From positions 102,545-166,544 of the forward strand of contig CAZJVD010000004.1 of NCBI GenBank assembly GCA_964549505.1: a DNA stretch of 64,000 nt, written 5' to 3'. Below are positions 12,848 to 55,391 of this stretch, piece by piece. Under the pieces are notes generated by a model. That model ran no database searches and was not told the origin of the DNA. It saw nothing but the letters and a program-made list of their open reading frames with translations. How positions within the stretch are numbered: the first letter of the stretch is position 1; each line of letters opens with the position of its first letter. A program made the position numbers and the translations under genes. This DNA is from an uncultured Oligoflexia bacterium (GTDB lineage Bacteria > Bdellovibrionota > UBA1018 > CAZJVD01).

Positions 12848-13687
12848 ATGACCGTCGAAGCGGTTGGCTTTCTTCAGGACACGGCCTTTCGTATTTTGGA
12901 TCGCTTTCGACGCGAGCGATTGTCATTGGCACTTTCGGTGCGGCGACTTCGTTTTGAGTCATTGAGCGCCTGTCCCTCGTGCGCGTCATCGTCTGAGGCG
13001 TGGAGTGTTGGTCCCGAGGGCCGTGACTTTCGAGCACGTATTCGAACATCCGAGTGCACGCGCTGTTCACTGGTTTTTCAAAATCCCCGCCTGACGTCCG
13101 AATCAGCTTCGATGTTTTATCGGCGTTACTATCGCAACTCGTTTCATACGAGGCAGAAGTCGGAACAGCTTTTTGCGCGGTCGTGCCGGCGAGGGAGTGA
13201 GATTGTAAAGTTTCTCGGCCAGGACTTGGATGGTGTGCGATCTGCTCTCGAAGTCGGATGCGGGTACGGCGGAATTCTCGTCGCGCTTGCTCGGCGTGGG
13301 ATTGATGTGCAGGGCTGCGATGAAAATCCGATGTCGGTTTCTGTTGCGACAGCGCACGGAGTTCCTGTCACGCTTGGTGGATTCGATGCGCTGCCCGAGA
13401 GGCGCTACGATTTGATTATTCTTTCCCATGTTCTCGAGCACGTGGATCAGCCTGTTCCGTTTCTTGAGCGGCTCAAGTCGTTACTCGCGCCGGGAGGTAG
13501 CATCTTTATTGAGGTCCCACGTATCGTGGCATCGACGGAGGATCGGGTTTTCCAGTTAGGGCACGTGCTTTATTTTGATTCTAAGTCTTTAGCGAACGTA
13601 TTGAGTAGAGTAGGGCTTTCAATTCAGAAACTCGAGGACCGTCGAGACGTCCTTCGTCGGCTTGTTACAGCGACGGCCGTATCATGA
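12848..13687 (+). CDS. Class I SAM-dependent methyltransferase
   Basis: Motif I 'LEVGCGYGGILVALARRG'. No further assignment. Confidence 0.65.
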   Translation: MTVEAVGFLQDTAFRILDRFRRERLSLALSVRRLRFESLSACPSCASSSEAWSVGPEGRDFRARIRTSECTRCSLVFQNPRLTSESASMFYRRYYRNSFHTRQKSEQLFARSCRRGSEIVKFLGQDLDGVRSALEVGCGYGGILVALARRGIDVQGCDENPMSVSVATAHGVPVTLGGFDALPERRYDLIILSHVLEHVDQPVPFLERLKSLLAPGGSIFIEVPRIVASTEDRVFQLGHVLYFDSKSLANVLSRVGLSIQKLEDRRDVLRRLVTATAVS

Positions 13688-13743: not shown

Positions 13744-13821
13744 CGGGGTGTGGCGCAGCCTGGCTAGCGCACTTGCTTGGGGTGCAAGAGGTCGTGGGTT
13801 CAAATCCCGCCACCCCGACCA
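13744..13821 (+). tRNA. tRNA-Pro (anticodon GGG)
   Basis: Cloverleaf read by eye: acceptor CGGGGTG/CACCCCG, anticodon arm CTTGC-TTGGGGT-GCAAG, T-loop TTCAAAT and an encoded CCA. Confidence 0.8.
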
Positions 13822-13835
13822 TAGCTCATAAAAAA

Positions 13836-13886
13836 GTAAAGAGGCAGGTCTCGCTTGCGAGATGACCTGCCTCTTTACTTTTTTAT
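13836..13886 (+). terminator. Rho-independent terminator after tRNA-Pro
   Basis: 15-bp perfect stem GTAAAGAGGCAGGTC/GACCTGCCTCTTTAC followed by T8 'ttttttat'. An A-tract sits upstream, so it may be bidirectional. Confidence 0.7.
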
Positions 13887-14023
13887 GAGCGGATGGAGTG
13901 ACGGAGATGGAACTCAGGCGTGGGTTCCTCATTTTTAGCAGGATGCTAAAAATGCGCGCGAGCCCTGAGCGAAGCGAAGGGTCGAGGCTAGGATGGCCGA
14001 GACAAATCCCGCCACCCCGACCA
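13848..14023. repeat. 176-bp direct repeat copy 1, ending in a 21-bp copy of the tRNA-Pro 3' end (att-like)
   Basis: Identical by eye to 14778-14953. The last 21 nt 'caaatcccgccaccccgacca' equal tRNA-Pro 13801-13821. Confidence 0.85.
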
Positions 14024-14037
14024 ATGCTCGACCGCGG

Positions 14038-14064
14038 CATTTCGATACTGAATGTATCGAAATG
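14038..14064. repeat. Perfect 11-bp inverted repeat (CATTTCGATAC-tgaat-GTATCGAAATG)
   Basis: It sits 15 bp after repeat copy 1 and 60 bp downstream of the higA-like stop on the minus strand. Confidence 0.8.
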
Positions 14065-14123
14065 AGCGCGGCGCATTTTCAACGACAGCCAGTACCTTAA
14101 ATCCGGAGCTTCAATCACAGTTG

Positions 14124-14444
14124 TTATGCCGCTTCCACAGTCACTTTCAATTTAAGTCCACCTTCTCGGACCGCGTCTTGGAGTGCGAGTTGAACTAAGA
14201 CACTCGGAGGATGGCCAAAGGCTTTGGCAAATCTCGCAGCTTGTTCTGGGCTGACCAGTCTTCGTCCTTTTTCCACGTCACAAAGATATTGCCTGGAAAC
14301 ACCAAGTTTTTTGGCAAATACCGTCTGAGACAGGTCATCTCTTAAGCGGAGTGACTCGACAGCCATGCCAAAAGTCAGAGGACCATCGAGAAGCCCTTCA
14401 ATAAACTCACGCTCCGAAGAGCTGTTCGATTTTTTTATAGTCAT
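14124..14444 (-). CDS. HigA-type antitoxin (XRE-family HTH)
   Basis: 'TVFAKKLGVSRQYLCDVEKGRR' is a classic XRE helix-turn-helix. It lies downstream of and overlaps a RelE/HigB-like toxin ORF. The start may be the internal Met at 14366. Confidence 0.7.
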   Translation of the reverse strand: MTIKKSNSSSEREFIEGLLDGPLTFGMAVESLRLRDDLSQTVFAKKLGVSRQYLCDVEKGRRLVSPEQAARFAKAFGHPPSVLVQLALQDAVREGGLKLKVTVEAA

Positions 14445-14715
14445 GCTTGTTTACCTCTTCAATCAGGACAAATTCGATCGAATCCCGTACGATTCGATAA
14501 TATCCACGATAACCCAACGAAAGCCTAAAAGAGCGGATTCCCTTCAATTTTCCGTGCAGTGGTTCATCATGATAACCAGATATTTTCTGGATTTCCGCTA
14601 GACCCACTTCACGCACGGTTCGCTCCCAAGTCGCATAAGCCTGGGCCACTTGCTTTGGTGCCCTTTCTAGGCTCTTACGCGCCCGTTTGGTTGAACGAAC
14701 CAAGGTGATCATCAC
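14407..14715 (-). CDS. RelE/ParE-superfamily toxin (HigB-like, toxin-first arrangement)
   Basis: 102 aa. 'HGKLKGIRSFRLSLGYRGYYRIVRDSIEFVLIEEV' resembles the RelE C-terminal core and the protein has the size expected for this family. Confidence 0.65.
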   Translation of the reverse strand: MMITLVRSTKRARKSLERAPKQVAQAYATWERTVREVGLAEIQKISGYHDEPLHGKLKGIRSFRLSLGYRGYYRIVRDSIEFVLIEEVNKHDYKKIEQLFGA

Positions 14716-14777
14716 AAATCCATTATTACGTCAAATAGACGTACTTGTCAATAAATTTAGTAGTGGAGGAAAATCGC

Positions 14778-14953
14778 GTCTCGCTTGCGAGATGACCTGC
14801 CTCTTTACTTTTTTATGAGCGGATGGAGTGACGGAGATGGAACTCAGGCGTGGGTTCCTCATTTTTAGCAGGATGCTAAAAATGCGCGCGAGCCCTGAGC
14901 GAAGCGAAGGGTCGAGGCTAGGATGGCCGAGACAAATCCCGCCACCCCGACCA
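14778..14953. repeat. 176-bp direct repeat copy 2, ending in the tRNA-Pro 3' 21-mer
   Basis: It matches 13848-14023, and the two copies bracket the toxin-antitoxin pair. Confidence 0.85.
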
Positions 14954-15060
14954 TTTGTTTAAAATTTCTTTCGGCCAGAACCAAAAATCAACAAACACAA
15001 ACCCTTGAAAACAGGGAGAGGGTCTGAACCCTCGCTCCAGGCATCTTGTGCGAATGTTTA

Positions 15061-15909
15061 TTACATTCCCTTCTGATAGCTAATCTCTCGGATCTTAGGC
15101 GTCTCTGTATTGAACGATTCAAGATAGTCGAGGTAAATTCGAACTCGTGGCTTGTTCATTACCGCGATTTCTTTACCCCCAACAGGTAGTACCTGAGGCT
15201 CGCGAAGCGCCAGATTTACAAGAAGCCAGCTCTGGGAAATCGATAAGGTAGTGCCTTTTGTGCAATGCTTATCATCAATCTTAAGACATCCAACCAAACG
15301 AAGGTCTACGGTTCCGTCGAAGTCGTAATCAACAGCAACCTGAATACGATAAGGACTGACGTCATCCCCAAAGTTAACGCTATCTACACGTGCATCCAAG
15401 CCATTATGGCGAACATGCTCAATTTGTTCGTCGGATAGCGCGACTTTTCCGATCATCGGAGTGTCCATGGATACATCGGGAATGAACCAATTCTTGGTTT
15501 GCTCCACAATTTCGTCCCCAAGCAACTCAACCGAAGCAATCCCAAATGGTTTGTCGGGGCCAGTAAAGGTTATTTTGACTTCTTGGCCAGTTCTAAATGA
15601 TTTTTCTAATTTTCTCTGCTCGGCGTCGGAAACATCATAGCAACCACCGCAATTCGAAATCTCCAAAGCAGGCGCCTTCGCACAGACGTTGAAACCCCAG
15701 TCAGCTGCCGGGTAATCGTAGTTTCCTTGCTTGTTGAGAGAAAATAAAGGGCCGCTGTTGCGGACAGCCGAAAGGCCAACAACCTTTCCTACATAAGGAT
15801 CAACTGCTGACTGTTGGGCGGCCGCGGTCGCGCCCCAAAGCAAAAGGGCAGTGTTTATGGAATGAATCACACTTCTTTTTCCGCTGAAAATGCTCGTTAA
15901 AATGTTCAC
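15061..15909 (-). CDS. Secreted hypothetical protein, paralog A of a two-member family
   Basis: Signal peptide 'ALLLWGATAAAQQ'. It aligns by eye along its length with ORF 17012..17881: 'YVGKVVGLSA', 'FPAADWGF', 'QRKLE.SFRTGQEVKI' and C-terminal 'TETPKIREI.Y..GM'. Confidence 0.6.
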   Translation of the reverse strand: MNILTSIFSGKRSVIHSINTALLLWGATAAAQQSAVDPYVGKVVGLSAVRNSGPLFSLNKQGNYDYPAADWGFNVCAKAPALEISNCGGCYDVSDAEQRKLEKSFRTGQEVKITFTGPDKPFGIASVELLGDEIVEQTKNWFIPDVSMDTPMIGKVALSDEQIEHVRHNGLDARVDSVNFGDDVSPYRIQVAVDYDFDGTVDLRLVGCLKIDDKHCTKGTTLSISQSWLLVNLALREPQVLPVGGKEIAVMNKPRVRIYLDYLESFNTETPKIREISYQKGM

Positions 15910-16145
15910 TTTAGGACTCCTTACAGCAAACAGTTAAATTCGTATTCGAGAAGTGCTTTTATCCTATTTTGACGCAATAGGAAATACATCGTTGATCCGT
16001 GGTTAACCAACTGAAAGTTTTAAGTATTTCTCGGCAACCAGGTTTCCAAGATCAGCTCCGCAAAGCCAAGATCAAGAAGCGCATCAAAATTGAAGACGCT
16101 GCCTAGTGCGGACTTTCAACGCCCCGCACTTAAGTCTTGCTATAA

Positions 16146-17030
16146 TTGACGCCTATCGTTAACCACCCATCTGTTATGAGAGCCTTTTTCTCTGTTCTAG
16201 CAGCTCTGTCCTTTTGGGCATCTGCGTCTGAAATCTGTTTGGCCGAAGACGACGGTGCGATACAGGCGTTGCTTAGGGGGGCCCGCGATGCATCTGAAGC
16301 CCATCGCGTGCTTGATGAGCACTTCGGGCGATTTCTCACCTACGCCGATAGACCCACGACAAGCCGAAAATTGAACAGGTTCGTCGTTCGGGTTGGGCGA
16401 GCTGGTCTGGAAAGTTTGCCGGATAGAGCGCTGTTTGCGACTTTGGTTCGGGCAACCCCTGACATCCACCAAGGATTTCGTCGTGACTGGGAATCACAGC
16501 AAACTCAATTGACAGCGCATGATCGAAGGTGGCTTGGAATTCTCCTTGCAGCCGAGTTAACTCGATTGGGCCTAACCCATCATTATTATGAAGACCGGCC
16601 CCTGAGACATGATGGAGTCCGATACGTTTCGACTGCTTTCGCATTACCGATTGCTACAGCATTGTATTTTGCGACAGGCACCTTAGAGGTAATTAAGGAT
16701 AATTTGTATCTAGATCCCATGATCAGCCCTGTTCATCAGTTGAATTTTTTCGTAGCCGCTTTGGCGGTTGGTTATGCCCTCGGGAGGAGCGTTGAATGGG
16801 CTTATGCTCGAATCGCACTTAGAAGTACACGGTCGTCTTTAGAAGAGCTCCTTGGCTTTATCGAAAGAAACGATCTCGAGGGTTCTGTGGATAACGCCGC
16901 TTCTTACGCTGAACATCACCAAGCTCGGCTTCAACAGTACCTTCGGTATGCTTTGGGGCCGGATGAGTCGCCTCTCTGTAAAACTAAATTGGCGGCCGGC
17001 CACTCGAGTCTTCACATGCCCGTGAAATAG
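16146..17030 (+). CDS. Hypothetical protein (N-terminal signal/TM, helical)
   Basis: 294-aa ORF between the two paralogs with consistent coding character. No motif recognised. Confidence 0.45.
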   Translation: MTPIVNHPSVMRAFFSVLAALSFWASASEICLAEDDGAIQALLRGARDASEAHRVLDEHFGRFLTYADRPTTSRKLNRFVVRVGRAGLESLPDRALFATLVRATPDIHQGFRRDWESQQTQLTAHDRRWLGILLAAELTRLGLTHHYYEDRPLRHDGVRYVSTAFALPIATALYFATGTLEVIKDNLYLDPMISPVHQLNFFVAALAVGYALGRSVEWAYARIALRSTRSSLEELLGFIERNDLEGSVDNAASYAEHHQARLQQYLRYALGPDESPLCKTKLAAGHSSLHMPVK

Positions 17031-17881
17031 CCGATTTCTCGAATCTTTGGAGTTTCAGTAGCGAACCATTCTAAGTAGTCCAGACGAATCCGAATACGCG
17101 GAATCCACTTCTTCTCGCTCTCGAGTTTATCCAGCTTCAGTAACCTTCGTATGTCATCAGCTAACGGACGTCGTTCCAAAGTCTTTCTAAAGGGTTCTGA
17201 TAGAACGAGGTCAACGAGGAGCGACGTTTGCGAAGTCGACAAGGTTGTGCCGGATACGCAGTCCTTATCCTCCGGCCCCAGACATCCCACCAAACGAAGG
17301 TCGGCGACTTCATCAAAGTTATAATCAATCGCAAAGTGAAATCGAAACGGGCTGATCTCGTCGCCCATCTGACTGGACAGTAGGCCAGCCTCTAAACCGT
17401 TATGACGGACGTACTCTAGATATTCGTTCGACAGCGGCACACGCGCGATCATCGGGACAGCTGACAGCTTACTCGGTCGGAGCCAGTCGGTGCTTTCCGC
17501 GATTTCGTCACCCACCAGATCAACGGACTCAATATCAAACACTTGATCTTTAGGAGTGTGGCCGATCTTAACTTCCTGACCCGTTCGAAAAGACGTTTCC
17601 AACTTTCGTTGGTCGATTTCCGAAAGGTCGTAGCATTTGCCGCAATCTGAGTAATACGCCGGCGGAACAGTCCGCTGACAAACGCTGAAACTCCAATCGC
17701 CCGCAGGAAAAACGTAGCTGTCTTTCTTGTTGAGAGCAAACACGGGCCCACAGTCGCGCTTGGCCGAGAGACCCACAACCGTTCCAACATAGGAATTAAC
17801 ATCAGCTTCCTGGCCGAATGCGGGTGCACCACAGACGAGGAAGCCCAGTAGCGGAGCGAGGTTCAACGTACGGACATTCAT
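17012..17881 (-). CDS. Secreted hypothetical protein, paralog B
   Basis: Signal peptide 'LLGFLVCGAPAFGQ' and the same conserved blocks as 15061..15909. Confidence 0.6.
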   Translation of the reverse strand: MNVRTLNLAPLLGFLVCGAPAFGQEADVNSYVGTVVGLSAKRDCGPVFALNKKDSYVFPAGDWSFSVCQRTVPPAYYSDCGKCYDLSEIDQRKLETSFRTGQEVKIGHTPKDQVFDIESVDLVGDEIAESTDWLRPSKLSAVPMIARVPLSNEYLEYVRHNGLEAGLLSSQMGDEISPFRFHFAIDYNFDEVADLRLVGCLGPEDKDCVSGTTLSTSQTSLLVDLVLSEPFRKTLERRPLADDIRRLLKLDKLESEKKWIPRIRIRLDYLEWFATETPKIREIGYFTGM

Positions 17882-17952
17882 TTGCGATCTCCTTGAAAAG
17901 TCCTTCTATCACCAATTGACGCAATCGCATATTCAGGGTAGACCATGTCGCC

Positions 17953-18642
17953 ATGCGAAACCGTAACAGAGTCCTTTTTATCGCGGTGAGTTTGCTTCTT
18001 ATGCCGGTGTCTCAGGTGTTCGGTGGGACTACGGAAACACCATTTGACACTCTTAGTACCCGGGGATTTGACCGGAAAACTACGTACGGACTCACGAGGC
18101 GGCCAAGACATGATTTGAACCTCGTCGGGCAAAATGAACGCGTGCCAAGATCGTGTTTGAACGCGCTTTTGGCGTTTCCGGGTATGAACTGGTTCCTTGG
18201 ACGACCCCACGAGGACTTTGTCGCTGTAGGTTCGGAATCAGAAGAAATCCTTAGAGAGGCTTGGGGTTACGATATCGAAATGATTCCGATCACGGATCTT
18301 GAGGCTTTTGTTCCAGCGGGAAGTGTCACCCGATATGTGACCGATTCAATAGCGGGACTGCGGACAGTTGCCTTCCAATCTCCTAAGATTGAGTATACGC
18401 GGGAAATTCCAGAAAAAGTTTTGACGCGCTTGAAGACGTTCCGCGGTGTGGGTGGCGAACCCAAAGCTGTACTTTTTGATACCGGCCCTACGGTGAATGG
18501 CTTTCTCAAATCAGTGAGTCGTCAGAGTGACTCCAGTGATGGCGCGCTGATTTTGCAAATCGTTTCAGCGGACAGCATCATTCATTCAGTGGTATTGAGC
18601 GGACCGTCGCCCAATTACCTCTTTCGACGGACGAATCAATGA
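17953..18642 (+). CDS. Secreted hypothetical protein
   Basis: 229 aa with signal peptide 'LFIAVSLLLMPVSQVFG'. Divergent from paralog B. Confidence 0.45.
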   Translation: MRNRNRVLFIAVSLLLMPVSQVFGGTTETPFDTLSTRGFDRKTTYGLTRRPRHDLNLVGQNERVPRSCLNALLAFPGMNWFLGRPHEDFVAVGSESEEILREAWGYDIEMIPITDLEAFVPAGSVTRYVTDSIAGLRTVAFQSPKIEYTREIPEKVLTRLKTFRGVGGEPKAVLFDTGPTVNGFLKSVSRQSDSSDGALILQIVSADSIIHSVVLSGPSPNYLFRRTNQ

Positions 18643-18709: not shown

Positions 18710-19954
18710 GTGTCACCTCTATCTCACTCTACGGAAGGTCTGCGTCCGCCGAATACGACGTTTACGGGTTACGAGCGATTTGTGATCGCGCTCTTGGCGT
18801 TCTTACAGTTCTCGATTGTTTTAGACTTTATGATTCTTTCGCCGCTGGGGGCTTTCTTAATGCCCGCGCTGGCGATCACACCCTCTGAATTTGGTTGGGT
18901 GGTTTCCGTTTACGCTTTTGCAGCGGGACTTTCGGGGTTTATCACGGCAGGGTTCGCCGATCGATTCGATCGGAAGAAGTTTTTACTTTTTTATTATACC
19001 GGGTTTGTGTTGGGAACGTTGCTTTGTGGCCTGGCACCCTCGTACACGACGCTTCTGGTAGCGCGTATTATCACTGGCATCTTTGCTGGAGCGATCGGTT
19101 CGATCGTGTTTTCGATTGTGACGGACCTGTTTCGGTTCGAGGTTCGCGGGCGTGTGATGGGTGTGGTGCAGACGGCGTTTGCCGCTAGTCAGGTCTTGGG
19201 GCTTCCGTTGGGGCTTTATTTTTCGAATCTCTACGGATGGCACGCGCCTTTTCTACTGATCGTCGGCGTTGCTACGGCTGGCGGTTTTGCGATTCTTTGG
19301 GGACTCAGGCCTGTGCGAGGTCATTTGACACCCACTGGGGGCGGAGTCGATCGCAGTCCGCTCCATCACCTGTTTGATACGTTGAAACAGCCGCGCTATC
19401 TCTTTGCGTTTGCGACGACAGCGCTTCTCAGTACGGGCGGGTTCATGATCATGCCGTTTTCGAGCGCGTTTACGGTGAATAATGTTGGTATCTCGACTGA
19501 GCTTTTGCCGCGCGTGTACTTCATCACGGGTATCGTCGCTGCCGTTGCAGGTCCGCTCTTGGGGCGCGCGACGGACAGGTGGGGATCCTTTCGATTATTT
19601 GTATTTGGAACCGCTCTCAGTGCGCTGATGGTCTGGATCTACACGCATCTTTCGATCACGCCGTTGGTTTGGATGGTTGTGATCAACTCGGTTCTTTTTG
19701 TCGGGATATCAGCGCGGATTATTTCCTCTCAAACATTGCTGTCGACAATTCCCGATCCGAAACACCGCGGTGCTTTTATGGCGGTTGGAGCATCGGTCCA
19801 GCAGCTCTCAGGCGGACTTGCCTCGGCCTTAGCGGGACTGATTGTGGTTCAAGAGATGAACGGTCAGTTGGGGCATTTTGACAGGCTGGGGTACGTGGTG
19901 ATCGCGTCGATGGTGTTTACGTTACTCATGATGCGAAGACTATCGACTCGATAG
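18710..19954 (+). CDS. MFS transporter
   Basis: 12-TM pattern, '[10 protein letters not shown]' loop 2-3 MFS signature and '[10 protein letters not shown]'. GTG start. Confidence 0.8.
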
Positions 19955-32318: not shown

Positions 32319-32408
32319 GGAAAGGTGGCCGAGCGGCTGAAGGCGCACGCTTGGAAAGCGTGTTATGGGTAACACCATACGAGGGTTCGAATCCCTCCCT
32401 TTCCGCCA
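32319..32408 (+). tRNA. tRNA-Ser (anticodon GGA)
   Basis: Acceptor GGAAAGG/CCTTTCC, anticodon arm CACGC-TTGGAAA-GCGTG, a long variable arm and an encoded CCA. Confidence 0.75.
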
Positions 32409-32441
32409 TTTTTAAATACCGGTATTCAGGAATTCCAGTAT

Positions 32442-32732
32442 TTAACCAGCCGCGCTTCTCTTCTTCTGAAACACGGCCTTTTCAAGTTTGGAAAGGCGGC
32501 CTTCCATTGATGACTCTGTAGCCCCAGAAGCGGCATCCCGAAGCACTTTATTAATCAAGGTCTGGTATTTCGTTCCGTTGTTCTCTGCCATTTCGCGAAA
32601 CCGCATGAGCACATCTTCCGGAATGACAATAGAGATCCGATGCCCAATTTTAGCTGGCTCGAAATCGTCTTCCGAAAGAATATCCTTCTTTCCATACTTG
32701 ATATCTGCTTTCTCAGCCTTTTTGATACTCAT
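32442..32732 (-). CDS. Ribbon-helix-helix (BrnA/CopG-like) putative antitoxin
   Basis: The C-terminal 'ISIVIPEDVLMRFREMAENNGTKYQTLINKVLRD' matches the RHH/BrnA-type signature. The start was trimmed to 'MSIKKAEK'. Confidence 0.45.
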   Translation of the reverse strand: MSIKKAEKADIKYGKKDILSEDDFEPAKIGHRISIVIPEDVLMRFREMAENNGTKYQTLINKVLRDAASGATESSMEGRLSKLEKAVFQKKRSAAG

Positions 32733-32946
32733 TCCAAACCTCCAAGAGATACGTTTTCCGGTTCGCCAAGTACTTCTGAATGCGATTAAGGTCTCGTTCC
32801 GTAAAGCCGCGAGAGAACAAACAGGCCAATGTTTCGATCTCAAATTTCGCCTCGTAATCAGGAGCCAGGGCATGAACATGAGGCGGTTGATGATCCTTCG
32901 GATAAACATAAATTTTAATGTTCCCGATGTAGATCACCGCTGGCAT
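32713..32946 (-). CDS. DUF4160-like small protein (putative toxin partner)
   Basis: 77 aa. 'IKIYVYPKDHQPPHVHA' is the hallmark block of DUF4160. It overlaps the downstream RHH gene by 20 bp. Confidence 0.5.
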   Translation of the reverse strand: MPAVIYIGNIKIYVYPKDHQPPHVHALAPDYEAKFEIETLACLFSRGFTERDLNRIQKYLANRKTYLLEVWNEYQKG

Positions 32947-33007
32947 ACATATTAATATATATCAAAATATATATTTGTCAAGTTTGGGTGTCATCTATAG
33001 GTCAAAT

Positions 33008-33499
33008 ATGGTGAGAATTGCCATGAGCCACGTACACACCCGAACCTGTCACTGCGGAAATCTCAGATTGGTGTTCTCCACCGGTAAAGAAACCAAAGAC
33101 CTATTCTTTAGGGAATGTCAGTGCAGTTACTGTACGCCACAGGGAGCGATTTACTGTACGGACGCCGAGGGCAGTCTTGAGATCCATTTAGACAGGAACG
33201 GTGATGTCGGTAGGTACAGTTTTGCTCTGCGGACGGCGGAGTTCTTATTTTGCAAGACTTGCGGTTGTTATCTTTGCGCAGTTCAAGAGAAGGAGGGGAA
33301 AACAAAGGCCGTCATCAATGCCAGATACTTTCCGACACTTCTCCCGACAGTTCTCAAGGCTGCCGACAACATCCGTTCCGTAAACTTTGATGGCGAATCG
33401 GCTGAGGCACGCACAGCTCGTCATGACAAGAACTGGACACCCGCCGAAGTGATAAACGGTCGGTCGAGCGAGAACTCCCCAGAGTTTAAAAAAAGTTAA
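33008..33499 (+). CDS. GFA (glutathione-dependent formaldehyde-activating/CENP-V-like) family protein
   Basis: Zn-binding Cys pattern 'CHCG...CQCSYC...CKTCG'. Start uncertain (33008 or 33023). Confidence 0.6.
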   Translation: MVRIAMSHVHTRTCHCGNLRLVFSTGKETKDLFFRECQCSYCTPQGAIYCTDAEGSLEIHLDRNGDVGRYSFALRTAEFLFCKTCGCYLCAVQEKEGKTKAVINARYFPTLLPTVLKAADNIRSVNFDGESAEARTARHDKNWTPAEVINGRSSENSPEFKKS

Positions 33500-33561
33500 A
33501 CTTTGTGCCTTTACTCCCGATGAGACGGAATAACGGGGGAAATTCGGTGATCAATCATAAG

Positions 33562-33981
33562 ATGCTCAAGATGCTTGGCTGTGTTTCTTTGTTCCTAACC
33601 TTGTTTTTTTCTCATGCCGCAAACGCTGCTTGCACTTGTGCTCCGCCTTACAATGATTGGCTCCACCCCTACGATGAGGAAACTCTTGTAAAGGTATCCG
33701 ACACCTGCACCCTGTTCCCGCAAGGTTCGTGTTTTGCTAATTCTGGTCTTTGTTACTACAGCTGCGATGGCTACGGGATGCAACAGCCTTGCATCACGAA
33801 AACAGCTCTGAACGGGACAAAAAGTTGCGGCTGTCCGGTTGCTCCTTTTGGTTGTCAGGTAACCAGCAGTGACTGCAATAGCTTCCCCTCTGATCACTGT
33901 ACTGGCATGTGCGAGTGGACTTTCACTTACACTATTTCGGGAAGCACCGGTGGGGCGATTACTTACTGCAACCAGCAGTAA
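33562..33981 (+). CDS. Small secreted Cys-rich hypothetical protein
   Basis: Signal peptide 'LGCVSLFLTLFFSHAANA' and 18 Cys in about 120 mature residues. Confidence 0.45.
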   Translation: MLKMLGCVSLFLTLFFSHAANAACTCAPPYNDWLHPYDEETLVKVSDTCTLFPQGSCFANSGLCYYSCDGYGMQQPCITKTALNGTKSCGCPVAPFGCQVTSSDCNSFPSDHCTGMCEWTFTYTISGSTGGAITYCNQQ

Positions 33982-33996
33982 GAAGTCGATCGAGCG

Positions 33997-34323
33997 TTAT
34001 TCCTTAGCTCGGCCACTGTGCGATTCTAAAAGACACGAATCATAAGCCGGGTCACCTGACTGTACGAGAACACCGTTTTTGGTCGTGCAGTTCACTCCAA
34101 AACGAATCGGTGACGTCTTGGGAGCAGGCGCAGTCGGGGCTGTCTTTTGTTCGAGCATCGTTTCAGCCGCGCCAGCATGCTTGGCTTCCTTAAGTTCCTT
34201 TTTTGTCGCTTTTGAAGCGCGCGGTGCAAGATCTGGTTTCTTTGCAGCTGTGCTCGTGTCGCCCTGAGCACTTGCAACCATGAAGGACGCCGTCAGTATC
34301 ACCACCGTCATAAAGTTATTCAT
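33997..34323 (-). CDS. Small secreted hypothetical protein (Ala/Lys/Pro-rich)
   Basis: Signal peptide 'VVILTASFMVASAQG'. Confidence 0.35.
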   Translation of the reverse strand: MNNFMTVVILTASFMVASAQGDTSTAAKKPDLAPRASKATKKELKEAKHAGAAETMLEQKTAPTAPAPKTSPIRFGVNCTTKNGVLVQSGDPAYDSCLLESHSGRAKE

Positions 34324-34398
34324 TGCGATCGATTTAACACAGGCCCAAGCGCATGGAAACGGCCACTCTGTCGCAGAATCATGTAAAATATAAGACGC

Positions 34399-35259
34399 AT
34401 GAGCTCCGCAAAGTCGCTCTTTCTTTTGGTGTTGGGAGTCGGCGTGACGTTCTGGATCCTCTCGAGTTTTTTCGGCCGAGAGCCGGACGTACCGCTGGAG
34501 GTGTCCGACGACTCAGACACTCCTCGCGTGACCCCCGTGCCGTCGCCGCAGAAAGCCCTCGTCGCTGCGCCGATCGCCGCCGTTGAGGATGCGGAGCCGC
34601 ATCCGAAAGAAATTAAAGAAAATACTCCGGACGCGCCAATGACCGCCGCACCCGTGGCGCCAGGTGCACCCGAAGTTTTCCGCGCGGACAATCAGGCCCA
34701 AGCGACGGCGGAGACCCAAGAGACGGCGGAGGCCACGCTGCCTGATGACCGTGGGGGTAAGGTTGCGCGTCAGTATGTGGGATGGGGAGTTCTGACGGGT
34801 GAACGAAACTTTAACGGCTGTAAGAAGGGCGAACCGGGCTGGTTCATCTATGGTGAAAACGTCAGCGACTATAAGTTCGTGTTACCGTCGGCGAGTGAGG
34901 ACGCAAACGCTACCGCGATGATCGAGTCCGTTCACGACAAACCTCGACCCGAGAGTGGCATTCTCGCTCACTGTGCTGACGGTCCGTTTAAGCCAGGTGA
35001 GAGGATTCGTGTGAGGGCGTCGGTCAAGTCGAACGGAGTTCAGGATTGGGCCACTCTCTTTCTTCGCGCCAAAAATCGCTTTGGAGAGACGCTGAAGTAC
35101 GAACGTACCGTCATTCGAGAGCATCCGGGTTGGAGGGTAAAAGCAGTTGAGATGGAGGTGCCGGAGGGCACGACCGCTGTGACGTATGGAGTACTTCTGG
35201 AAACGGTCGGGAAGGTTTGGATTAAGAAAGTTTCGGTGACACGTGTCCCGGGACCTTGA
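34399..35259 (+). CDS. Membrane-anchored hypothetical protein with Pro/Ala-rich linker
   Basis: One N-terminal TM segment 'LFLLVLGVGVTFWILSSFF', an acidic Pro-rich linker, then a roughly 150-aa C-terminal domain. Confidence 0.45.
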   Translation: MSSAKSLFLLVLGVGVTFWILSSFFGREPDVPLEVSDDSDTPRVTPVPSPQKALVAAPIAAVEDAEPHPKEIKENTPDAPMTAAPVAPGAPEVFRADNQAQATAETQETAEATLPDDRGGKVARQYVGWGVLTGERNFNGCKKGEPGWFIYGENVSDYKFVLPSASEDANATAMIESVHDKPRPESGILAHCADGPFKPGERIRVRASVKSNGVQDWATLFLRAKNRFGETLKYERTVIREHPGWRVKAVEMEVPEGTTAVTYGVLLETVGKVWIKKVSVTRVPGP

Positions 35260-54029: not shown

Positions 54030-55391
54030 TTACTCCGTCTTCGACAGAACCGTTTCATAGACAAAAATCTTGGTGGCCTCGTCATCGTGAGGCGCAAAAT
54101 AAAAACGAAACCTAGCTGCTTTCTTGCCACTGACTTCAACGGTTTCGTATTCAAAATCAAAAGCATTATAACTTGGAGGAATATCTCGACTCCAAGTCTC
54201 GGCCCATACGCCCTTTTCATTGATGGTCGGTAGCTCAACCCGGTGAACAATCCGATAGGTGCCCTTTGCGTCGAATTCGATCAGATCGAGCACCCCATCG
54301 GGATCCCAAGGTCCCAGTTTTCCGGCGCAAAGAAAATACTGACCACTACTATTCGGCTGAGCTTTGCAGTCCTGATATTCAAATTCATCTTTCGGAGTGA
54401 ACTTTTGAGCCCCCGCAGGGAAGTGGAGCGTCCCGTCTTTCACCGTATCACTCGTCAAGACGTCGATATCGTAATCAATAAGGTGAACACAGTGGTTCTC
54501 GCTATCGCACAGAATTGTTCCAAAATGTTCTGTCAGCCCATTTGAAAGAAGGACACACGAATTCAAATCTTCGTCGACGCTTACGACGACCGATTGATCA
54601 TCATCGTCCGGTCCCGCCAACGGAAACCACATTGTCGAGCTGGCTAAACCGAAAGCAATTCCACCGGGATGTTGCGGCTTGCAGGAGCGAAAAACAGTCG
54701 GTTGCGCTTGCGATGCTTTTTTATATTCTGCACTGACATCCATCCATTTTGTGAGAACGGCCGCCCATCCTGCATCGGGATCCAGTCCAAAATCATACTT
54801 CATCAGCACAGCACGTTCGGCTGACTTGTCCTGGGAGGTTAAATATGCATAACCCTTCGATACGAGTAATCCTTGCGGATGTGAACGGTTCACACCCTTT
54901 GGCAGAGGTAAAGGGACGGCGGCTTTGAGAACAAGATCTTTATAGGATTTGATCCTATGAAAATCATCGGCCCAAAAGGAATCGTTATCTTTGATCTTAA
55001 GTTCGATCGACACGGGTGACACGGGCGATGCGGGATTCTTTGCACGGAGTGTGATGACAAGGTTCTCACTAGGTTCGCCGATAGCATCATCGAGAAGTTT
55101 TAGACGAATTTCCCCGGAATCATTGCCGGCCGTGATCAATACTTTATTTTCATTCTGACTTTCGGAGCGGATGACTTGAAAATCGATATTTGATTTCGCA
55201 CTTCCAGATAATTCATACGGTATCCAGAGGTCTTGATCAGATTTTGAGTCAAGAACGATCAAGACTTTCACTTCGCCTACGGCTTCACCGTAAGTCTGAG
55301 ATCGTCCTGCGAATCGCGCCTCAGTGGCCTGCGCATAGGCACCGACTCCCCACCCGATGCTCAGAACCGCAGAGAAGAGGATTGATTTCAT
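54030..55391 (-). CDS. Secreted hypothetical protein with N-terminal Calx-beta-like domain
   Basis: Signal peptide 'VLSIGWGVGAYAQA' and a Calx-beta-like block 'VKVLIVLDSKSDQDLWIPYELSGSAKSNIDFQV'. Confidence 0.5.
   Translation of the reverse strand: MKSILFSAVLSIGWGVGAYAQATEARFAGRSQTYGEAVGEVKVLIVLDSKSDQDLWIPYELSGSAKSNIDFQVIRSESQNENKVLITAGNDSGEIRLKLLDDAIGEPSENLVITLRAKNPASPVSPVSIELKIKDNDSFWADDFHRIKSYKDLVLKAAVPLPLPKGVNRSHPQGLLVSKGYAYLTSQDKSAERAVLMKYDFGLDPDAGWAAVLTKWMDVSAEYKKASQAQPTVFRSCKPQHPGGIAFGLASSTMWFPLAGPDDDDQSVVVSVDEDLNSCVLLSNGLTEHFGTILCDSENHCVHLIDYDIDVLTSDTVKDGTLHFPAGAQKFTPKDEFEYQDCKAQPNSSGQYFLCAGKLGPWDPDGVLDLIEFDAKGTYRIVHRVELPTINEKGVWAETWSRDIPPSYNAFDFEYETVEVSGKKAARFRFYFAPHDDEATKIFVYETVLSKTE

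Follow-up and report, generated by a model that had tools for sequence, protein, structure and literature searches.

An anciently duplicated pair of putatively exported orphan proteins beside a candidate toxin-antitoxin mini-element at tRNA-Pro in an uncultured Oligoflexia bacterium

Introduction

Genomic islands of the tRNA-linked, tyrosine-integrase type target tRNA 3′ ends, and toxin-antitoxin (TA) pairs often persist in island remnants. The locus described here, positions 15061-18642 of a 64-kb stretch of DNA from an uncultured Oligoflexia bacterium (the window), resembles such islands in adjoining a tRNA-Pro gene and in its atypical composition, and the adjacent 13.8-14.95 kb holds three direct 21-nt copies of the tRNA 3′ end together with a TA pair. 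It differs from them in that the repeats bound a 0.93-kb TA unit, whereas the block itself lacks an integrase, mobility genes and a right-hand att site. The neighboring cassette is similar to type II TA systems of the HigBA/RelE kind, with a toxin gene first, an overlapping XRE-HTH antitoxin gene next, both of them small, and a strong promoter-like site upstream, although it scores just under the curated cutoffs (RelE_StbE and HigA); it has no functional tie to the block.

Two further classes of genes bear comparison. Like lineage-specific ORFans, the block genes have no outside homologs, are lower in GC and less well adapted in codon usage than core genes, and cluster in a variable region; they depart from that class in that two of them, parA and parB, are duplicates that were kept until dS was saturated and that share a conserved putative regulatory block. 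From polymorphic toxin/immunity loci the block differs in two ways: neither paralog is directly followed by a same-strand immunity gene, and the C-terminus of the duplicated proteins is conserved rather than a variable tip.

Results

All four open reading frames of the block that had been listed in an initial annotation are present. Together with a terminator-like signal, they are as follows.

15018..15033, minus strand: terminator-like hairpin and T-run, 28 nt past the parA stop codon
15061..15909, minus strand: parA (paralog A), 282 aa, GTG start, AAGGAG-7nt ribosome site, signal-peptide-like N-terminus
16176..17030, plus strand: orf284, orphan; 294 aa if read from the opening of the ORF at 16146; signal-peptide-like N-terminus
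17012..17881, minus strand: parB (paralog B), 289 aa, ATG start, AAGGAG-7nt ribosome site, signal-peptide-like N-terminus
17953..18642, plus strand: orf229, orphan; signal-peptide-like N-terminus, start uncertain

The description of parA and parB as clear paralogs sharing ordered sequence blocks is fully borne out. The two products are identical at 145 of 288 residues (50%; BLASTP E = 4e-95), with a similarity z-score of 117 in a shuffle control, and their alignment is collinear from the N- to the C-terminus, where it ends in the common motif TETPKIREIxYxxGM that had been singled out before. Relative to parA, parB carries a 15-aa insertion near the C-terminus; the C-terminal 29 residues are among the best-conserved parts of both proteins. 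Nucleotide identity at codon positions 1, 2 and 3 is 0.66, 0.74 and 0.41, and dN is 0.37 against a dS of about 3.8 (synonymous sites saturated), from which it follows that parA and parB are genuine coding genes that arose by an old duplication. Since that ancient event, purifying selection at the protein level has preserved the two of them, and each is preceded by an identical, host-type ribosome site (AAGGAG, 7 nt, start).

Conservation between the two copies extends upstream of the coding regions, to two elements.

15948..15995, minus strand: upstream block A, 48 nt, core ATTGCGTCAAT; putative shared operator/promoter element
17895..17942, minus strand: upstream block B, 48 nt; takes up most of the 71-nt gap between parB and orf229

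These elements are identical at 33 of 48 nt although the synonymous sites of parA and parB are saturated, and their alignment score of 18 (against 8.2 ± 1.3; z about 8) was equalled by none of 2000 shuffles and none of 940 real segments. The near-palindrome ATTGCGTCAAT lies inside the element, and the exact 10-mer occurs at these two sites only. An RNA element was considered and set aside: the 48 nt matched nothing in Rfam, and neither a stable RNA fold nor one common to the two copies was seen, which makes a site acting at the DNA level the likelier reading. The element would appear to be a shared promoter or operator and, so read, suggests that parA and parB are probably co-regulated through it; the palindromic block could also be a promoter remnant without a dedicated regulator. 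Selection sustained to saturated dS, together with the conserved block, marks the paralogs as established, functional genes and not as annotation noise or very young genes.

Judged by eye, the N-termini of the paralogs look like the signal peptides that had been assigned to them: a charged n-region precedes a hydrophobic core, and the residues at -3/-1 are small, with putative cleavage sites at AAA/QQ and AFG/QE, and the same n/h/c pattern with small -3/-1 residues fits all four block proteins. The mature paralogs contain no hydrophobic 19-mer. Five cysteines are conserved (Cys76/87/90/208/216 in parA; Cys68/80/83/200/208 in parB), and these include a CGxC motif as well as a C-x7-C spacing. 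At about 29 kDa each, the products would be soluble proteins of mixed alpha/beta type that are exported by the Sec route, and the conserved cysteines presumably stabilize them or make them functional; the odd number of these cysteines and the CGxC motif could instead reflect redox or metal chemistry. Two catalytic motifs were considered by eye, a thioredoxin-like CxxC and an L,D-transpeptidase-like His...GC, and neither is proposed here, the spacing being wrong and sensitive Pfam models silent.

The initial annotation's remark that no motif in the block could be assigned holds across Pfam, NCBIfam, PHROGs, PADLOC and PDB sequences, none of which matched any of the four proteins, and no housekeeping family to which the paralogs might belong was found in the libraries searched. 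A match of parA to OB_RRP5_4th (E = 0.0095) was discarded, since it fell below the cutoff of that model and was absent from parB. In a word-indexed search of 5.8 billion clusters, each of the four proteins, all singleton clusters, recovered only itself or its paralog, and a paralog profile found nothing when metagenome and viral contigs were scanned in translation. For parA and parB only, 1.84 billion representatives were searched exhaustively with HMMER, which gave a sole match, P0004, a 2311-aa protein of DUF3011 repeats with a summed E-value of 1.8e-11. The match aligns at about positions 164-221 of the paralogs (NGL..SV.L..E.S.Y....V.Y.FD....GC) and was not upheld: it consists of seven stretches of 1.6-10.9 bits each (i-Evalue above 1e4), the sum being inflated by near-identical repeats. 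Kinship with DUF3011 (PF11218) was likewise rejected, with an hhalign probability of 26%; the Pfam model gave no match to the paralogs even at E ≤ 10, and its defining cysteine pattern is absent from them. No homolog of the block proteins was found among about 15 billion proteins.

The structure prediction proposed earlier for the paralogs and the 294-aa protein was run, and no fold could be drawn from it. AlphaFold2 models reached a pLDDT of 41 for the two-sequence parA/parB alignment and 39 for orf284 as a single sequence, both unusable, and Foldseek, when the paralog model (pLDDT 41) was compared with the PDB, found nothing at E ≤ 0.001, with TM-scores of 0.17 or less. At low confidence, orf284 is predicted to be all-helical.

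The standing of orf284 and orf229 as genes is less secure than that of the paralogs. The 294-aa frame does overlap the 3′ end of parB tail-to-tail on the opposite strand, as first described, by 19 nt (17012-17030); public gene calls start it at 16176, giving 284 aa that open directly with MRAFFSVLAALSFWASA/SE, a signal-peptide-like sequence. The 229-aa protein fared less well: the ORF exists and its frame is weakly favored over an antisense ORF (six-frame codon scores of -0.03 and -0.18), but in public calls the span holds a 152-aa gene (18184-18642) and a 77-aa antisense ORF instead. One or both of orf284 and orf229 may not be genes at all, in which case the block would comprise just the paralogs along with long stretches of regulatory or untranslated sequence. 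We regard this as unlikely. In its favor, the codon scores are the lowest in the neighborhood (0.011-0.016 for orf284 and 0.063 for orf229, against 0.211 ± 0.062), orf284 at 0.016 bits/codon lying 3.2 sd below the host mean; no clear Shine-Dalgarno sequence was seen ahead of 16176, 17953 or 18184; gene callers disagree over orf229; and there are no homologs, hence no evolutionary test. Set against this, in each of the four block ORFs the annotated frame outscores the other five, clearly so in both spans at issue, which stay open for 294 and 229 codons and hold no long ORF that would compete. They also show the GC1>GC2 pattern typical of coding sequence and, as judged by eye, plausible signal peptides, and in a window coded this densely, gaps of 0.7-0.9 kb without a gene would stand out.

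Gene order in the block is <parA orf284> <parB orf229>, that is, two head-to-head pairs. The initial annotation had raised the possibility of a toxin/immunity or adhesin/chaperone module, in which the paralogs would be secreted effectors or adhesins and the protein sandwiched between them their partner. All that speaks for such a module is that exported orphans cluster here, that one of them is duplicated and that a TA cassette lies alongside; we consider it very improbable. Each paralog lies on the strand opposite to its neighbor, so that the two are not co-transcribed and have no operon linkage, and the paralogs are collinear up to and including their conserved C-termini. Pfam, NCBIfam, PADLOC and PHROGs revealed no toxin, trafficking or immunity domain in the block, Pfam and NCBIfam no PapD-like chaperone, usher or adhesin repeat domain in the four proteins, and Pfam, NCBIfam and PADLOC no secretion-system domain. 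The possibility that orf284 and orf229 are cryptic paralogs, left by duplication of a two-gene unit, was examined and rejected: they are unrelated (z = 0.56), so there is no duplicated partner.

The block begins 1.2 kb downstream of tRNA-Pro, and the intervening DNA contains the following features.

13744..13821, plus strand: tRNA-Pro(GGG), found by ARAGORN; Rfam tRNA, 63 bits
13848..14023, plus strand: 176-nt perfect direct repeat, copy 1; its last 21 nt (14003-14023) equal the tRNA-Pro 3′ end and are att-core-like
14124..14444, minus strand: HTH (XRE/HigA-like) antitoxin candidate; Pfam HTH_31 6e-11, HTH_3 6.5e-10
14407..14715, minus strand: RelE/ParE-superfamily toxin candidate, upstream of the antitoxin in HigBA-like order
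14778..14953, plus strand: 176-nt repeat, copy 2, ending in the third tRNA-Pro 3′-end copy (14933-14953)

The antitoxin candidate matches HigA (TIGR02607) at 6.6e-08 with 32.3 bits, under the cutoff of 47.7, and the toxin candidate matches RelE_StbE (TIGR02385) at 3.1e-06 with 27.6 bits against a cutoff of 27.9, and ParE_toxin at 0.0022. A near-consensus promoter-like site for the toxin candidate (11 of 12 positions) lies at 14751-14722. In a search of the whole window that allowed up to 3 mismatches, the 21-mer of the tRNA-Pro 3′ end was found three times (13801, 14003 and 14933; 0 expected) and nowhere else in the 64 kb, and hence not to the right of the block. The repeats enclose the RelE/HTH cassette only, copy 2 being the right-hand limit of the unit. 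That the 176-nt repeat is an assembly artefact was discounted, since an independently made k139 assembly from ENA shows no difference from the window over 13,067 nt and stops exactly 139 nt into copy 2, which is the graph branch expected for a true repeat. The RelE/HTH unit is a cleanly delimited, integrase-less mini-element at tRNA-Pro carrying a candidate toxin-antitoxin pair. A second tRNA gene (Ser, 32.3 kb) likewise precedes a TA-like pair and secreted ORFs without Pfam matches, which suggests that tRNA-adjacent accessory patches recur in the source genome.

The tRNA-linked, att-like repeat on which the initial annotation relied is therefore present, in three copies, yet does not bracket the block. 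Since the block follows the last repeat copy, has no copy downstream and contains no integrase, it lies outside the only element that can be delimited, and the claim that the repeat marks it as acquired cargo finds no support. Every ORF of at least 100 aa in the 13.8-18.7 kb interval was scanned; none encoded an integrase or another mobility function, and only the RelE and HTH proteins matched families.

The comparison of base composition and codon usage that had been called for did set the block apart. Its GC content of 0.493 (against 0.541 ± 0.013) is the lowest, and its tetranucleotide distance of 19.7 (against 13.3 ± 1.5) the highest, of the 87 3.6-kb segments in the window, and the codon scores of its genes lie 1.2-3.2 sd under the host mean. 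Low GC3 and low codon scores run across 14.0-18.65 kb and return sharply to the host level at an MFS gene (0.241). These features, with the adjoining triplicated att-like cores and TA pair, would fit an older acquired island at tRNA-Pro. The block would be its cargo, decay would have removed its outer att site and integrase, and the TA cassette would be an inner unit that either arrived later or survived. However, orphan genes are reportedly AT-rich as a rule, whatever their origin, so that composition alone does not discriminate the origin of the block, and the GC3 of parB (0.56) is near the host value. The missing right-hand att copy and mobility genes and the lack of any donor among the proteins searched also count against an older island, and the saturated dS and host-type ribosome sites of both paralogs fit long residence.

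Relatives of the host are distant. With LpxC as bait against GTDB species genomes, the best match was 51% identical, to Bdellovibrionales, Bdellovibrionia and Oligoflexia MAGs; with Acs as bait in metagenomes, the nearest match was 68% identical. In the nearest relatives (loci L002-L004), LpxC followed by tRNA-Pro(ggg) forms a conserved anchor, beyond which gene content differs in every relative examined, none sharing genes there, and tblastn of the block proteins and their neighbors against 161 loci (2.4 Mb) found nothing. This variability past the tRNA speaks for an older island, but at 51% LpxC identity the relatives are too distant for loss of synteny to mean anything. By the same token, orphan status is to be expected, and genes confined to one lineage are ordinary in a poorly sampled bacterium. 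Taken together, we hold an older island to be a possibility of less than even weight.

Discussion

The reading that we favor, with some confidence, sees in the block an accessory cluster specific to its lineage, with four genes that code for extracytoplasmic proteins; the nearest neighbors of the uncultured host are Bdellovibrionota/Oligoflexia MAGs. An older island overlaps with this explanation and differs only in the origin of the genes. At the core of the accessory cluster are the anciently duplicated parA and parB, probably co-regulated via the putative 48-nt promoter/operator; the products of the two genes may serve as accessory proteins of a binding or structural kind, either periplasmic or extracellular. 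The unrelated orphans orf284 and orf229, apparently exported or membrane-associated and divergent from parA and parB, respectively, would be neighbors of the paralogs and putative partners at most. The cluster appears to adjoin, while lying outside, a degenerate, integrase-less remnant of a tRNA-Pro integrative element that now seems to carry the RelE/HTH pair only.

A bolder proposal is that all four orphans form a co-regulated extracellular module under the palindromic ATTGCGTCAAT, constituting a previously unseen secreted family for prey or cell-cell interaction with a CGxC redox or metal site; the Bdellovibrionota-like host would then possibly be a predator. We think this improbable.

As it stands, the main value of the locus is as a calibration point: orphan status is the expected outcome at 51% LpxC identity, and genes that adjoin a tRNA gene are not island cargo on that account, even when att-like repeats lie close by. 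In concrete terms it yields two verified paralogs under selection, a candidate cis-element that they share and a delimited TA mini-element at tRNA-Pro. If a role in predation or envelope remodelling were defined for the cluster in this deep Bdellovibrionota-like lineage, the paralogs would represent a new secreted family without structural precedent.

Duplication, Selection, and Predicted Export of the Paralog Pair

The genes of the block at 15061–18642 are arranged as two head-to-head pairs, one formed by the paralog A gene and the plus-strand ORF orf284 and the other by the paralog B gene and the plus-strand ORF orf229. In addition, orf284 and the paralog B gene share a 19-nt tail-to-tail overlap.

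Gene layout of the region
Upstream of the tRNA-Pro region: RuvC, RuvA, RuvB, LpxC, and SAM-methyltransferase genes
13744–13821, plus strand, tRNA-Pro(GGG)
14124–14444, minus strand, XRE-HTH antitoxin gene
14407–14715, minus strand, RelE/ParE-like toxin gene
15061–15909, minus strand, paralog A
16146/16176–17030, plus strand, orf284
17012–17881, minus strand, paralog B
17953–18642, plus strand, orf229
From 18710 or 18782, MFS exporter gene, then acetyl-CoA synthetase and Dps genes

BLASTP aligned paralogs A and B over their full length at 50% identity (E = 4e-95), and the alignment was collinear apart from an insertion of 15 residues in B. Both N termini are signal-peptide-like, with small residues at −3/−1, in keeping with the secreted paralog pair proposed in the initial annotation. 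No hydrophobic 19-mer is present in the mature part of either protein, and the two share five conserved cysteines (C68, C80-x2-C83, and C200-x7-C208, B numbering). The two genes also have the same ribosome site, AAGGAG, 7 nt, and the start codon.

Nucleotide identity between the two genes was 0.66 at the first codon position, 0.74 at the second, and 0.41 at the third, with dN = 0.37 and a saturated dS of 3.8 (NG86). This pattern points to protein-level purifying selection following an ancient duplication and indicates that A and B are real, old duplicates kept by selection. There was no further copy in the 64-kb window. Given that the databases searched include the proteins of this MAG and returned none, a third copy appears to be absent from its assembled genome.

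A Conserved Element Upstream of Both Paralogs

An ungapped 48-nt block, identical at 33 of 48 positions, lies upstream of paralog A (15948–15995) and paralog B (17895–17942) on the minus strand. Its local alignment score of 18 compares with 8.2 ± 1.3 for shuffles and was matched by none of 2000 shuffles and none of 940 real window segments. The core, ATTGCGTCAAT, is a near-palindrome, and the exact 10-mer TTGACGCAAT occurs twice in 64 kb, both times within the 48-nt blocks. Because synonymous sites are saturated, conservation of this element argues for selection. Rfam gave no match and neither a stable nor a shared fold was found, so the element is read as DNA, a candidate promoter or operator shared by the two paralogs. 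Between the divergent genes for paralog B and orf229 it takes up most of the 71-nt intergenic gap, so it might also control orf229.

The Plus-strand ORFs

For both orf284 and orf229, the annotated frame was clearly the best of six, with low codon scores (0.011–0.016 and 0.063 bits/codon, respectively, versus a host mean of 0.211 ± 0.062). In public gene calls, orf284 begins at 16176 and the orf229 span is divided into a 152-amino acid gene (18184–18642, plus strand) and a 77-amino acid antisense ORF (17878–18111, minus strand) that overlaps the paralog B start by 4 nt. The codon-frame score favors a single 229-amino acid plus-strand reading, which makes an error in the deposited annotation probable; this reading also supplies a predicted signal peptide. 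Neither candidate orf229 start has a good Shine-Dalgarno sequence.

Neither of the two ORFs is related to the other or to either paralog (z ≤ 0.6), and a duplicated two-gene unit was accordingly not demonstrable. The suggestion that the paralogs and their neighbors form a toxin/immunity or adhesin/chaperone module found no support: the neighbors lie on opposite strands, the paralog C termini are conserved rather than polymorphic, the relevant domains were not detected, and the putative partners, orf284 and orf229, are not duplicated.

Homology and Fold Searches

No block protein matched Pfam, NCBIfam, PHROGs, PADLOC, or PDB sequences, in keeping with the earlier failure to assign a motif. Among 5.8 billion clusters, a word-indexed search retrieved nothing beyond the query itself or the paralog, and each of the four proteins forms an unnamed singleton cluster. 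Metagenome and viral contigs, scanned in translation, yielded no paralog homolog. Exhaustive HMMER searching of 1.84 billion representatives with a paralog profile recovered one foreign protein, a 2311-residue DUF3011-repeat protein. This match was rejected: seven near-identical stretches, scoring 1.6–10.9 bits each, add up to its 60 bits, and hhalign put the probability at 26%. AlphaFold2 models of paralog B (mixed beta/alpha, pLDDT 41) and orf284 (all-helical, pLDDT 39) were too low in confidence for a fold claim, and Foldseek found no structural match.

Among species-representative genomes, the nearest are MAGs of Bdellovibrionales, Bdellovibrionia, and Oligoflexia, sharing only 51% LpxC and 67–69% RuvB identity, and an Acs-baited metagenome scan found nothing closer than 68%. 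With relatives this distant, the orphan status of the block proteins is unsurprising.

The tRNA-Pro Element and Its Relation to the Block

The initial annotation had taken the block for horizontally acquired cargo following a tRNA-linked att-like repeat. Across the window, the 21-nt tRNA-Pro 3′ end is present only three times, at 13801, 14003, and 14933. Its last two occurrences each end one copy of a perfect 176-nt direct repeat (13848–14023 and 14778–14953), with a unit length of 930 nt. The repeat is real: a k = 139 assembly made independently for the same organism matches the window without a difference over 13,067 nt and breaks off precisely 139 nt into the second copy, where a repeat should give a de Bruijn branch point.

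The repeats bracket only the RelE/HTH toxin-antitoxin (TA) cassette. The block begins past the last copy, no att-like copy lies on its far side, and no integrase is encoded anywhere in the tRNA-Pro-to-block stretch. The argument for cargo from the att-like repeat therefore fails. The element that can be delimited (13822–14953) is a TA mini-unit of 0.93 kb that lacks an integrase and stands in tandem with a 0.2-kb remnant, and the paralogs are neighbors of this element rather than its cargo. Its perfect repeats could permit loss or amplification of the TA unit by homologous recombination.

Directly after tRNA-Pro lies a perfect hairpin with 27-nt arms (13824–13890; GCTCATAAAAAAGTAAAGAGGCAGGTC, 13 nt, then complement), probably the tRNA-Pro terminator. 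Its right arm belongs to the 176-nt repeat and recurs at 14794–14820. Weak Rfam “mir-583” matches here are hairpin artifacts.

The predicted deviation in composition was confirmed. Among all 3.6-kb window segments, the block has the lowest GC content (0.493 versus 0.541 ± 0.013) and the largest tetranucleotide distance (19.7 versus 13.3 ± 1.5). Low GC3 and codon scores extend over 14.0–18.65 kb; both are back at host levels in the MFS gene (18782–19954), whose host-like codon usage marks the right-hand edge. This transporter scored best against the myxochelin exporter MxcK model (E = 4.6e-67), but its 227 bits fall short of the 525 cutoff; rather than an equivalog, it is a generic DHA-type exporter. 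The block could be part of an older, decayed island, and equally could consist of native lineage-specific genes, AT-richness reportedly being typical of orphan genes regardless of origin.

Relatives and Other Atypical Patches

The nearest relatives keep the order RuvA-RuvB-LpxC-tRNA-Pro(GGG). Genes after the tRNA differ in each, from which, at 51% LpxC identity, nothing specific about the block follows. In the three nearest relatives' loci, tRNA-Pro directly follows LpxC; the intervening class I SAM-methyltransferase gene (12848–13687) is therefore a lineage-specific insertion.

The tRNA-Ser region (32319–35259), in which no tRNA-derived direct repeat was found, ranks second among the compositionally atypical stretches of the window. 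Here, a minus-strand TA-like pair is followed by a gene for a GFA-like protein and by three ORFs that lack Pfam matches and have signal-peptide-like N termini.

Features of the tRNA-Ser region
32319–32408, tRNA-Ser(GGA)
About 32442–32720, minus strand, BrnA/CopG-like antitoxin of the TA-like pair
32713–32946, minus strand, DUF4160 gene of the TA-like pair
33505–33981, Pfam-less secreted-type ORF (Cys-rich)
33997–34323, Pfam-less secreted-type ORF
34399–35259, Pfam-less secreted-type ORF

Another atypical patch is a low-GC (0.48) gene at 54030–55391, whose 453-residue product, probably a surface protein, has weak Calx-beta and DUF6454 matches.

Of the initial annotation, the observation stands, whereas its interpretation holds only in part, without the tRNA-repeat cargo and module ideas. 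The block is best read as a lineage-specific accessory cluster of predicted exported orphan proteins. Its core would be an old paralog pair, kept under selection and probably co-regulated. The cluster adjoins, but is not part of, a degenerate tRNA-Pro element carrying a TA pair. A tRNA followed by a TA-like pair and Pfam-less secreted-type ORFs looks like a general trait of this genome. The block proteins are a new sequence family, yet ordinary as a kind of genomic feature.
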